A DNA stretch of 64,000 nucleotides from assembly GCA_965248535.1 (NCBI GenBank), contig CBDFJR010000005.1, forward strand, positions 288,001-352,000. Direction: 5' to 3'. This document shows positions 61,383 through 63,738 of this stretch, piece after piece (the first letter of the stretch is position 1; each line of letters begins with the position of its first letter). The position numbers and the translations under genes are program-made. The notes beneath the pieces were generated by a model. That model was not told where the DNA came from. It was given only the letters and a program-made list of their open reading frames with translations, and did not search any database. The stretch is from Phormidesmis sp. (GTDB lineage: Bacteria; Cyanobacteriota; Cyanobacteriia; Leptolyngbyales; Leptolyngbyaceae).

Positions 61383-61757
61383 TCAATCTAGCTGAATTGT
61401 TGTTTTGTTGTGCAACTCCTCTACTTGAATTAATGAACCACTACCCAGAACAATGTTGAATTTCACTAAAGAACGTTCAACCTGATAACCGGGCAACACT
61501 CGAACAACTTGATACTCTGTGGTCAAATCACTGGTGCCATCCCACTTCAGAAATGCCAGTTGATTAGACGCAATCTCACTCAGTTGTGAAGTGAAGTCTT
61601 CAATGTGATCGCTAACATCCAAAACAATGCCAGACGACATGAAGAGATAACGCTCTTGTAAATCCAAAGTCACACTCACCCGATAACGCTTTTCGATTGA
61701 GCAACGTAACTCAACCGTAAACGAAATCGAGCTAGGCACGATCGTCCTAACTCCCAT
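61383..61757 (-). CDS. Orphan hypothetical protein (124 aa)
   Basis: ATG preceded by AAGAGG RBS; no family recognised. Confidence 0.55.
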   Translation of the reverse strand: MGVRTIVPSSISFTVELRCSIEKRYRVSVTLDLQERYLFMSSGIVLDVSDHIEDFTSQLSEIASNQLAFLKWDGTSDLTTEYQVVRVLPGYQVERSLVKFNIVLGSGSLIQVEELHNKTTIQLD

Positions 61758-61773
61758 GTTTTTGTCCTCTTAG

Positions 61774-61893
61774 TTAAGTTAAAGAGGACAAAAACACGGA
61801 TCTCTCAGACATTGGGTTGGGGTGAAAACTGTATGCAGGATCTTGATTCCAGCCTTTCAAGATCCCATAGCAAAGCCGACGGTGTACAATCAT
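61774..61893 (-). CDS. Putative 39-aa leader peptide
   Basis: AGGAGG-N5-ATG; MIVHRRLCYGILKGWNQDPAYSFHPNPMSERSVFLSSLT*. Confidence 0.5.
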   Translation of the reverse strand: MIVHRRLCYGILKGWNQDPAYSFHPNPMSERSVFLSSLT

Positions 61894-61992
61894 GAACGCC
61901 TCCTGAGTTAATGGTTCTAACTAGGGATGGAAGTCCTCGGAGTTCTGATCTCGTAAATCAGACTTCGGGGCACAACTCCATCACTGCGGTGT

Positions 61993-62021
61993 ATTCTACA
62001 GGAGTTTTTTGTTTTTTGGAA
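61993..62021 (-). promoter_or_regulatory. Putative sigma70 promoter
   Basis: TTCCAA-N17-TAGAAT, ~10 nt upstream of the first hairpin. Confidence 0.45.
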
Positions 62022-62230
62022 GGCTGAGTTTTTTTGGGGGAGGGGGAAGCGATCGTAAATTCTCCCTGATTTATGTTCCAGTCGAGCAACGGCATGGGTG
62101 CGATCGACTCAGCGCCATGACCGATCTATCGGGACGAGACAATTTATTTTTGGCTCCCTTAGAATCGAAAAATCTGAGCGCCATTCCGTATAAGTACTCG
62201 AAAGTGGAGAGTTATCCTGTGGGAATTCAG

Positions 62231-62236
62231 TATAAT
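62231..62236 (+). promoter_or_regulatory. Candidate cassette promoter (Pc) -10 box
   Basis: Perfect TATAAT ~100 bp upstream of the first cassette boundary. Confidence 0.35.
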
Positions 62237-62322
62237 TCCTAAAAAAATGGGAGTTGTCCGGTTTCCATACGGCATGATTTCCATGAGAGGGATATTTATC
62301 CTGTTTGATAGGAGTTCAAACG

Positions 62323-62341
62323 GCAGAAATAGTAGTTAGCC
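62323..62341 (+). mobile_element. attI-like site / start of cassette 1
   Basis: GCAGAAA-TAGTA-GTTAGCC; GTTAGCC is the exact complement of GGCTAAC at the end of cassette 1. Confidence 0.55.
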
Positions 62342-62406
62342 CCCTTGCGCCAAATGAACATTCGCACTGATGAGTTAGCATTTGAGAGCGATTACAAGGA
62401 TAAGCA

Positions 62407-62934
62407 ATGAAAATTTTGGAGACTAATCGGCTCATCCTGAGACATCAGGTACTGGAGGATCTTGATAGTCTCTACGGGCTTTATTGCGATCCAGCGGTGA
62501 AGCAGTATATTCCCAATGCGCCCCAGACGTATCAAGAGACGAAGGAGGAGTTGGAGTGGTTTCTCAAGGGACATCCAAAGTATCCAGAGTTAGGGCTTTG
62601 GGCAACCATTCATAAAAAAACAAATCAGTTCATCGGACGGTGCGGGTTGCTGCCTTGGACGATTGATGGGTGTGAAGAAGTGGAGGTAGCCTATTTGCTG
62701 TCTAAGGCGTATTGGGGACAAGGGTTAGGAACTGAAGTGGCGCAGGGGGTCGCGCGATATGCCTTTGAGCAATTGCATCTGACGCGATTAATTTGTCTGA
62801 TCGATCCCGAAAACCAGGCTTCGATTCGTGTTGCGTGCAAGCTCAGCATGGAATTTGAGAAAGAGTTCGAGGATGAATACGGACGATGTTTGGTGTACTC
62901 GACCTCAAGATCAGGTGGTGTGAGAAATCGATGA
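62407..62934 (+). CDS. RimJ/RimL-type GNAT acetyltransferase (cassette 1)
   Basis: ILETNRLILR, FIGRCGL, YWGQGLGTE, NQASIRV. Confidence 0.92.
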   Translation: MKILETNRLILRHQVLEDLDSLYGLYCDPAVKQYIPNAPQTYQETKEELEWFLKGHPKYPELGLWATIHKKTNQFIGRCGLLPWTIDGCEEVEVAYLLSKAYWGQGLGTEVAQGVARYAFEQLHLTRLICLIDPENQASIRVACKLSMEFEKEFEDEYGRCLVYSTSRSGGVRNR

Positions 62935-62982
62935 TTCAACAAGCCAACCGCTAGCCAACGCTTAACCTGCTGTCAGAGCGGA

Positions 62983-63071
62983 GGCTAACAACGCCCATGC
63001 ACACCGACCGCTAAGAGTTGATCGGTGATGATGCAGAGGCTACTTGCGGCGGGTGATGGGCAACGTTGGGC
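62983..63071 (+). mobile_element. Integron attC site 1
   Basis: R'' GGCTAAC ... R' GTTGGGC; left arm GCCCATgCACaCCGaCCGC pairs with GCGGCGGGTGATGGGC, leaving three extrahelical bases. Confidence 0.9.
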
Positions 63072-63117
63072 TGGTGCGAATAGCGAATAGAAGCGCGAAT
63101 TGATAGAATCGAAGACT

Positions 63118-63618
63118 ATGGTTGATTATGATGAAGCGATGAAATCCGTCATGAATGGAGACTTGAAGCATTTACAATTTCTGGCGAGTAAGCATGAAGA
63201 TTTTCCCAATGGTAAAGATGCATTCATCCAACGCCATTGGATAACCAATGCTGTAGATTGCGGAACATTTGAAGTCGTGCAATGGATGCTGACCCAAAAT
63301 GTCTCGCTTAAATTCCGAGATGATGAGGGATACACACCTCTTCACTCGGCTATTGATAGGGACAATTCAGACAAACATCGTGTCCTTGAACTTTTATGTT
63401 TAGCTGGGGCCGATACGAATGCACATGGAATTAATGATTGGACACCACTTCACATGGCCGCAGCAAGGAATGATGTAGAAGCGTTGAGGATTCTGCTTAC
63501 TCATGGAGCTGATGCCAGCGTAAGAACTCGTATTGATGATTATTCGACTCCTTTAGAAGAGGCTAAATTACTTGGCTCCAGTGATGCAGTAAAATTTTTG
63601 GAGCATCCAAATAATTAA
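63118..63618 (+). CDS. Ankyrin repeat protein (cassette 2)
   Basis: GYTPLHSA, WTPLHMAA, TPLEEA. Confidence 0.9.
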   Translation: MVDYDEAMKSVMNGDLKHLQFLASKHEDFPNGKDAFIQRHWITNAVDCGTFEVVQWMLTQNVSLKFRDDEGYTPLHSAIDRDNSDKHRVLELLCLAGADTNAHGINDWTPLHMAAARNDVEALRILLTHGADASVRTRIDDYSTPLEEAKLLGSSDAVKFLEHPNN

Positions 63619-63638
63619 CGCCATAATCCTCAACACCA

Positions 63639-63738
63639 GCCCATAAAGGCGCTGCACCCGACCGCCTACAGCCTGCGCTACGCCTCGTTCCTCGGCTCCG
63701 CTTCGGCTTCCGGCGGCGGGTGAGCTTAGTCGTTGGAC
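63639..63738 (+). mobile_element. Integron attC site 2 (degenerate R'' box)
   Basis: GCCCATA-AAGGC-GCTgCACCCGaCCGCC pairs with GGCGGCGGGTGAGC...GTTGGAC; R'' AAC reads ATA. Confidence 0.8.

Follow-up and report, generated by a model that had tools for sequence, protein, structure and literature searches.

A gene with a predicted leader gate and antisense RNA beside chromosomal integrons of Phormidesmis: a candidate type I toxin-antitoxin unit

A unit of about 640 bases, located at positions 61390-62040 of the window (the whole 64,000-nucleotide stretch of Phormidesmis sp. DNA analysed), combines a gene whose ribosome-binding site (RBS) is enclosed in a stem, a leader ORF that ends in the loop of that stem and, on the opposite strand, a predicted antisense RNA with two hypervariable loops. 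The unit is real and conserved, and apparently undescribed so far. Its anatomy and conservation, the selection on its gene, the strand asymmetry of its main hairpin, the variation of its loops and its link with integrons are established below. Judging from these features, the best explanation, to which we give about an even chance, is that the unit would act as a type I toxin-antitoxin (TA) lock, with a soluble toxin of a new family, on the integron island that it borders. No description of the unit was found in the literature covered, subscription papers and supplements being outside that coverage. A survey of RNA structures in 202 cyanobacterial genomes, two of P. priestleyi among them, could include one of these structures, to go by the part of that paper available (PMC12873609).

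Anatomy of the unit

The unit comprises the following features, in window coordinates.

61993..62021, minus strand: predicted sense promoter, with -35 TTCCAA at 62021-62016, a 17-nt spacer and -10 TAGAAT at 61998-61993
61899..61904, minus strand: Shine-Dalgarno (SD) sequence of the leader, AGGAGG, nearly invariant among units
61774..61893, minus strand: leader ORF of 39 codons, based on sequence and conserved length
61838..61865, no strand assigned: hairpin or inverted repeat within the leader, GGATCTTGA/TCAAGATCC, with an invariant 10-nt loop
61754..61799, minus strand: RBS-sequestering stem, whose loop (61772-61781) contains the leader TAA
61383..61757, minus strand: orphan gene of 124 aa (123 aa in other copies), an ORF
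61885..61890, plus strand: predicted antisense -10 box TACAAT, inside leader codons 2-3
61896..61990, plus strand: predicted antisense RNA of about 95-120 nt, with a 5' tail complementary to the leader SD followed by two stem-loops
61902..61925, plus strand: stem-loop A, with a hypervariable 7-nt loop at 61911-61917
61926..61982, plus strand: stem-loop B, the long imperfect hairpin of the preliminary description, with a hypervariable 7-nt loop at 61950-61956

A preliminary description of this DNA had listed a promoter-like site, hairpins, the 39-codon leader, the RBS stem and the 124-aa ORF, and each of these elements was recovered in its place. The minus strand from 61730 to 61995 folds with z = -3.3, none of 200 shuffled sequences being equally good, and perfect stems of at least 15 bp with loops of 3-12 nt, as in the RBS stem, number just 31 in the 5.03-Mb genome. 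At the sense promoter the -10 box reads TAGAAT in 39, TACAAT in 19 and TAAAAT in two of 70 units, 60 of which are of the TAnAAT type. The consensus promoter scan made no call there, TTCCAA matching TTGACA at three of six positions; the prediction of this promoter therefore rests on conservation.

Leader translation and the hidden ribosome-binding site

The leader was analysed in 74 distinct units, which were chosen by a motif that includes the leader start. It has 39 codons in 69 of them, and in the remainder 38 (one unit, through an in-frame deletion), 37 (one unit), 40 (one unit, with a TAG one codon downstream) or a broken frame (two units). In the 38- and 40-codon leaders the stop remains within the loop of the RBS stem. 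The stem is perfect over 15 bp (61757-61771/61782-61796) and extends to 18 bp at 94%; AAGAGG and the first base of the main-gene ATG lie in its 3' arm, and in its 10-nt loop the TAA is constant while the neighbouring positions vary. The main SD is predicted to be closed in all 24 full-length folds computed, with an unpaired probability of 0.00-0.14.

Selection was estimated on the 62 units in which the main and leader frames are both intact. Leader codons 1-20 have a dN/dS of 1.1 on DNA that is nearly invariant, silent sites included (pS 0.01-0.03), and codons 21-39 drift, with a dN/dS of 0.5-0.8. Since length and stop are kept while the peptide varies, what seems to matter is that the leader is translated, and not which peptide it yields. 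The preliminary description had proposed that translation of the gene behind the sequestered RBS depends on the leader; this is strongly supported at the level of sequence, the stop staying in the loop across two cyanobacterial orders. It is the arrangement of the copA/tap/repA type, where the leader stop sits at the stem hiding the RBS of the next gene.

The leader-internal hairpin is equally stable on the two strands. The 12-mer CGTCAGCTTTGC, which covers the RQLC codons (window 61861-61880, L128:1398-1409), is kept across two orders, silent positions included; the window copy has CGG in place of CAG. Fold-back of the 5' on the 3' end, of the hok type, was not consistent among full-length folds (0-34 expected pairs). 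Mutual information revealed no pairing-type covariation between the antisense loops and the rest of the leader, and a role of the loops as guides or pseudoknot partners was therefore set aside.

The antisense RNA and its two variable loops

The preliminary description had placed the long hairpin on the mRNA. Stem-loop B fits the opposite strand instead: in all 68 units the plus-strand fold is the stabler one (-27.5 versus -16.8 kcal/mol). Over 22 pairs in 60 distinct sequences the plus strand has 211 G-U cells and two A-C cells; its G-U cells are mismatches on the mRNA, and the hairpin hence probably belongs to an antisense RNA. In the predicted RNA 99.2% of 1800 cells are paired, the changes being one-sided only. 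Two-sided compensatory changes were found inside the genus at none of 30 pairs, shuffles matching the observed values, so support for the structure comes from the one-sided G-U changes and from a distant lineage described below. A covariance model of the RNA gives exactly 17 strong hits in the genome, one per gene copy. The antisense -10 TACAAT is kept in 66 of 70 units; a -35 was not recognisable, and no canonical terminator was found, a T-tract lying downstream at about 62004-62017.

The two 7-nt loops are the most variable positions of the unit. Mean p-distance is 0.63-0.66 in loop A and 0.51-0.52 in loop B, and both exceed the divergence of the gene's synonymous sites (pS 0.32-0.40). Watson-Crick closure of the loop is rare (0/59 for loop A, 2/50 for the other), and loop B begins Y-U in 39 of 50 cases, recalling the U-turn kissing loops of plasmid antisense RNAs. 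Among the 17 copies of this genome no two share both loops (0/136 pairs), the median difference being eight of 14 positions; in P. priestleyi ULC007 both loops are identical in one of 190 pairs. The loop-A allele GCGTTCA (mRNA sense) recurs across species, in L048, L050, L053 and L054 and in two copies of this genome, each time with different loop-B alleles, which suggests that loops may be exchanged by recombination. Unit relatives are present as contigs in four of four RNA runs from three studies (X1, X2, X5, X9), contigs that carry neither strand nor level and may include DNA.

Antisense control, one of the mechanisms first put forward, is supported in the sequence by the strand-specific G-U pattern, the conserved antisense -10 and the variable 7-nt loops. 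As in type I TA loci, the predicted cis antisense RNA is complementary to the region that controls translation. The other proposal, a riboswitch, fared worse. It would make the unit an mRNA-only riboswitch or attenuator on a host stress gene, spread by gene conversion and hitch-hiking, and it could draw on a conserved, structured 5' region and nearly invariant leader codons 1-20, the antisense RNA being known as a prediction. However, Rfam covariance models gave only noise-level hits on the unit (E 0.33 or worse), stem variation keeps the pairs on the opposite strand only, hypervariable loops are ill-suited to a ligand pocket and the antisense -10 is conserved. We accord this reading little probability.

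A diverged form in another order

Four further units occur in G553 and G777, two of 57 genomes searched, which belong to one genus of another cyanobacterial order. Two are intact, with 47-48% protein identity, and two have a disrupted frame. All four have a promoter-like -10 (TTGACA-N17-TATACT at the same place in G553), a long hairpin stabler on the antisense strand, TAAGAT at the antisense -10 position and, 19 nt ahead of the start, a leader stop that falls within the loop of a stem concealing the RBS. Their leaders have 30-31 codons, begin MILRQLC, follow an SD of GGAGG or GAGGG and contain an internal hairpin at the same place with a different sequence. The second antisense stem, GATA/TATC, differs from the Phormidesmis form, and its 7-nt loop is variable. 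Pairing is thus preserved although the stem sequences have changed, and this provides the compensatory evidence that the genus itself lacks. A strong 3' hairpin follows three of the units, the fourth being cut by the contig end. Neither intI, attC nor an origin was found around them (19 kb examined for one locus and about 2 kb for three), so the unit can stand alone. In L138 and L139 the frame is disrupted by similar insertions of 22-25 nt, both placed at one and the same GATCGC near the beginning of the gene.

The protein

The main gene is under purifying selection (dN/dS 0.13-0.14, 62 units) and is intact in 16 of the 17 copies of this genome. Its product is acidic, with a pI of 4.5-5.3 (mean 5.1 over 156 sequences), and has no hydrophobic segment, the maximum 19-residue hydropathy being 0.7-1.3; the 123-124-aa protein is therefore not Hok-like in the sense of a small hydrophobic protein with a transmembrane helix. 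Eight diverse members share M1, V3, R4, P8, S10, I11, F13, a D, an R and a WD motif. Two concordant structure models (pLDDT 88) show an alpha+beta arrangement of three strands, a long helical stretch and a long beta hairpin.

That the gene is an orphan, as first supposed, was borne out by the profile, PDB and fold searches, which yielded neither a family nor a fold match. The best profile E values were 0.34 in Pfam, 0.059 in PHROG and 0.042 in PADLOC (P0125 only), with none in NCBIfam, and no known toxin or defence family in these four collections matched above cut-off. With the two models the fold search reached Z 4.3 (rmsd 6.0, 78 aligned) and 4.2 (rmsd 3.0, 66 aligned) at best, and Foldseek an E of 0.085-0.1, nothing above background, by which a new fold is not proven. 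The single hit of the PDB sequence search, a designed coiled coil (E 0.004), is not usable. In the ESM Atlas the window protein had no usable hit, and P0168 fell with unnamed clusters at 0.88-0.90, a lead only. Two metagenome scans for the distant proteins P0123, P0124, P0133 and P0168 found no locus; a longer fused form was not found either, a weak negative.

The same antisense switch might serve another function, such as phage exclusion, an immunity-type regulator or a modulator of a host protein, without any killing when the unit is lost. The strength of purifying selection on the gene and the intact state of most copies point to some advantage for the host, and sedentary integrons are said to carry many anti-phage genes, which was also counted in its favour. 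PADLOC, PHROG, NCBIfam and Pfam give no such assignment, however, and a function of this kind does not by itself explain loops private to each copy; we consider it unlikely.

Proposed mode of action

For the preferred reading, that of a type I TA lock, we propose the following sequence of events. The RBS of the gene is locked in a very stable stem, whose loop carries the stop of the conserved leader ORF. Ribosomes completing the leader would very probably open the stem, allowing the main gene to be translated. With equally strong grounds, an antisense RNA of about 100 nt, made from the promoter in the leader start, would contact the mRNA through its two 7-nt loops, cover the leader SD and block the chain from leader to gene. 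Differences between loops would probably make the antisense RNA of one copy a poor silencer of the others. On loss of a copy or arrest of host transcription, the antisense RNA might decay first and the protein might then harm the cell, a step for which the scales are level; such harm would favour retention of the island and may abort phage infection. The protein could be a toxin, at about even odds. Operation like that of hok/mok/sok or copA/tap/repA is predicted, the unit being a member of neither.

Several observations were counted for this reading. With three layers of predicted repression, a restricted range and duplication within particular lineages, the self-standing module matches the profile of type I TA loci, and narrow, lineage-amplified spread is the pattern of type I toxin families in the available part of the source (PMC5367252). 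The same arrangement recurs in another order with about 48% protein identity and other stem sequences; the loops are more divergent than synonymous sites, and loop pairs are near-unique. Against it were counted: (i) the acidic, non-hydrophobic nature of the 123-aa protein; (ii) the mostly intact genes (16/17), since chromosomal addiction toxins are often decayed; (iii) the high loop diversity itself, with which unique loop pairs are likely by chance, and the fact that unpaired loops could merely drift; and (iv) the absence of a canonical terminator, a recognisable -35 and a consistent fold-back, together with that of the 3' hairpin in the window copy.

In its most specific form the proposal would hold that a soluble toxin with an unrecognised fold is governed by a private two-loop RNA key in each copy, and that 10-20 mutually non-neutralising locks per chromosome keep in place a dispersed network of mobile integron platforms that are mostly integrase-less; this form is tentative, and we incline somewhat against it. 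Private loops, if real, would explain how many copies can remain addictive side by side. If true, the TA reading would add a soluble family without a recognised fold to control of the hok/mok/sok type. Over 70 loop-pair alleles exist in nature on a scaffold that hardly varies; the rules of antisense specificity can be tested on them directly, and they would give cyanobacteria a ready supply of orthogonal RNA switches. Through its tight association with intI 3' ends and with integrase-less arrays, the unit would also provide a testable handle on the keeping and spread of dispersed chromosomal integrons.

Comparison with known systems

The hok/mok/sok system (parB, plasmid R1) is likewise a self-contained module, in which a cis antisense RNA overlaps the 5' region and blocks a leader ORF whose translation is coupled to that of the main gene, as set out in the accessible section of its description (PMC4393325). 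Hok is a small membrane toxin, whereas the protein of the unit has 123 aa, is acidic and soluble and belongs to no known family; unlike hok/mok/sok, the unit also has a pair of hypervariable 7-nt loops, is present in 17 copies on the chromosome, most of them intact, and shows no consistent fold-back.

In copA/tap/repA and in the RNAI/SLI system of I-complex plasmids an antisense-blocked leader opens a stem over the next RBS and loop bases set specificity, according to the portions available of both sources (PMC4393325, PMC10724649). The unit differs from those replicons in its chromosomal location and in having neither Rep homology nor the covariation between loop and pre-RBS region that a pseudoknot would need. 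It could still derive from a small integrating plasmid as its basic replicon (R1 copA/tap/repA or IncI/IncB type), in which the antisense RNA would set copy number and incompatibility, the 123-aa protein would be the initiator and the 3' hairpin the origin. The gene order antisense RNA, leader and RBS-sequestered gene is that of copA/tap/repA (PMC4393325), and loop bases set kissing and compatibility in I-complex plasmids (PMC10724649), in both cases as the excerpts available have it. All 17 copies, however, lie on two large contigs and none on the three small ones; the unit was not found in 72,556 plasmid records, 50,697 phage records or viral contigs; and the protein, small and acidic, matches no Rep profile. 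The 3' hairpin lies behind most copies, is variable and is absent from the window copy. Since there is no Rep match and no plasmid record, and since the copies are chromosomal, a replicon is very unlikely.

The type I loci Ldr and Ibs share with the unit a narrow taxonomic range and lineage-specific duplication, in the part of the review available, where small membrane toxins dominate type I systems (PMC5367252). Type I modules of C. difficile adjoin CRISPR arrays, to judge from the accessible text (PMC5961336), and the unit also lies beside an array, but that of an integron. The Ldr, Ibs and C. difficile toxins are small membrane peptides in these partial accounts, whereas the protein of the unit is larger and soluble.

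Among cyanobacteria, MsoT1/MsoA1 of Microcystis, called the first cyanobacterial type I TA candidate by its own paper, resembles the unit in having a two-hairpin cis antisense RNA; MsoT1 is a 63-aa basic membrane toxin with the antisense RNA at the 3' end, and leader coupling is not described in the available part (PMC12390103). No other cyanobacterial type I TA candidate turned up in the literature, and this one is a membrane peptide. The ssr7036/asRNA1/cyRepA1 system of plasmid pSYSA in Synechocystis is also an mRNA-antisense pair in which a small ORF precedes a larger gene; in the portion of the report available it serves plasmid copy control with a primase-helicase Rep (PMC9978351). No sequence similarity to the unit was found in plasmid records.

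Copies, spread and gain or loss

The 17 copies of the unit in this genome are 85-92% identical, and 16 fall into a single clade (support 100/99) in a tree of 69 rows whose bootstrap had not fully settled. The protein is present in all eight genomes of the genus, with 4-21 matches each; among 82 other genomes of the family it is clear in one and marginal in one. Named relatives of the unit are Phormidesmis. One of 401 genomes in the phylum sample (this one) and three of 401 in the class sample have it. A single close copy lies in a genome of another genus (L070, G089:C451; 85% complete), by transfer or binning error.

For 54 of 58 loci of other genomes the downstream flank could be mapped here, and 47 of these sites are empty and seven occupied. 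Conversely, the TPR gene that precedes the unit in this genome has no unit behind it in six relatives. Hence the unit was gained or lost at many chromosomal positions. Neither terminal inverted repeats nor target duplications, as of an insertion sequence or MITE, were evident at 21 junctions, where the genomes compared are about 85% identical and intergenic DNA has diverged. Two copies without an attC array, at G000:C2:1726600 and C5:2345652, have a different 60-bp upstream segment in common.

The integron neighbourhood

Next to the unit the window contains the following features.

62045..62342, plus strand: integron head without integrase, with an attI-like core GTTAGCC at 62335-62341
62049..62055, no strand assigned: CGATCGC, at the joint where intI is absent and the head is fused straight to the unit
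62407..63071, plus strand: first cassette, with a GNAT acetyltransferase gene at 62407-62934 (Pfam) and an attC at 62983-63071 (attC profile)

The motif CGATCGC is presumably HIP1-like, by name. An ankyrin-repeat gene (63100-63618) follows the first cassette, and the attC profile overlooks a second attC-like site near 63616-63733. It had been supposed that the gene occupies the position of intI. Instead, one copy of this genome immediately follows, on the same strand, the 3' end of a complete integron-type integrase gene, with GATCGC at the intI stop; intact copies sit in this manner and the window copy follows an intI deletion, so the gene neighbours intI and does not replace it. To our knowledge, a unit-like element 3' of intI is not a known part of integron platforms.

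The window head (about 300 bp) is common to seven other unit copies at 86-93%, the similarity stopping at GTT. Head and unit meet at GATCGC, where intI is absent or, at one locus, has an insertion in its place. Two further integrase-less copies have the head of the intI-bearing copy, and L027, from a related genome, has a window-type head, an intI 3' remnant and the unit at one locus. In at least two head types of G000 intI seems to have been lost by deletion from one GATC(GC) to another, leaving the head fused to the unit. Many island junctions lie near GCGATCGC (G000, several loci).

In this genome attC sites flank 12 of the 17 copies on the side of the head, always oriented as in the window; of the other five, one has an attC on the opposite side and four have none within 12 kb. 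In the genus the unit lies directly 3' of seven of the 11 strongest tyrosine-recombinase hits, with IntI 60-95% identical to that of this genome; of the remaining four hits, three may or may not be IntI. Sequence of intI or a head lies upstream in 33 of 46 related loci with enough flank, some of the matches being short. CALIN are integrons that lack the integrase, and the window resembles them in its attC array without intI; the CALIN concept covers the array only. At their 3' ends all 17 copies lack a site recognised by the attC profile, and the unit is thus not an integron cassette. The 3' hairpin was considered as an attC and ruled out, as it reads GTT...AAC and occurs behind unit copies only.

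The main rival of the TA reading arises from this neighbourhood. It keeps the same switch and makes the protein a helper of establishment or mobility for the integron platform (an IntI accessory or anti-defence factor), produced in a burst on entry into a cell without the matching antisense RNA, private loops evading the resident copies; we regard it as possible though on balance rather improbable. The 12 copies heading arrays in one orientation and the recombinase and upstream associations just given all accord with it, as do the acidic protein and the position of the unit at the end of strain-specific islands. It is harder to reconcile with the four distant units without intI or attC, the four copies of this genome without attC within 12 kb, the second complete integron of the genome, which has no unit, and the 21 junctions without terminal repeats or target duplications. 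The helper would thus account better for the link to intI, but not for the integron-free lineage.

The array beside the window copy (G000:C5:350983-358684) has at least five profile-detected attC sites, and its cassette genes include GNAT, ankyrin and one that we take to be PemK/MazF-like. Array and unit form an island of about 10 kb, where four relatives have 0.5-4 kb of other DNA. Elsewhere, G000:C2:1670980-1677532 consists of two unit-head-array blocks in tandem; in the first, a transposase gene separates the unit from the head, and the array includes a reverse-transcriptase-like frame.
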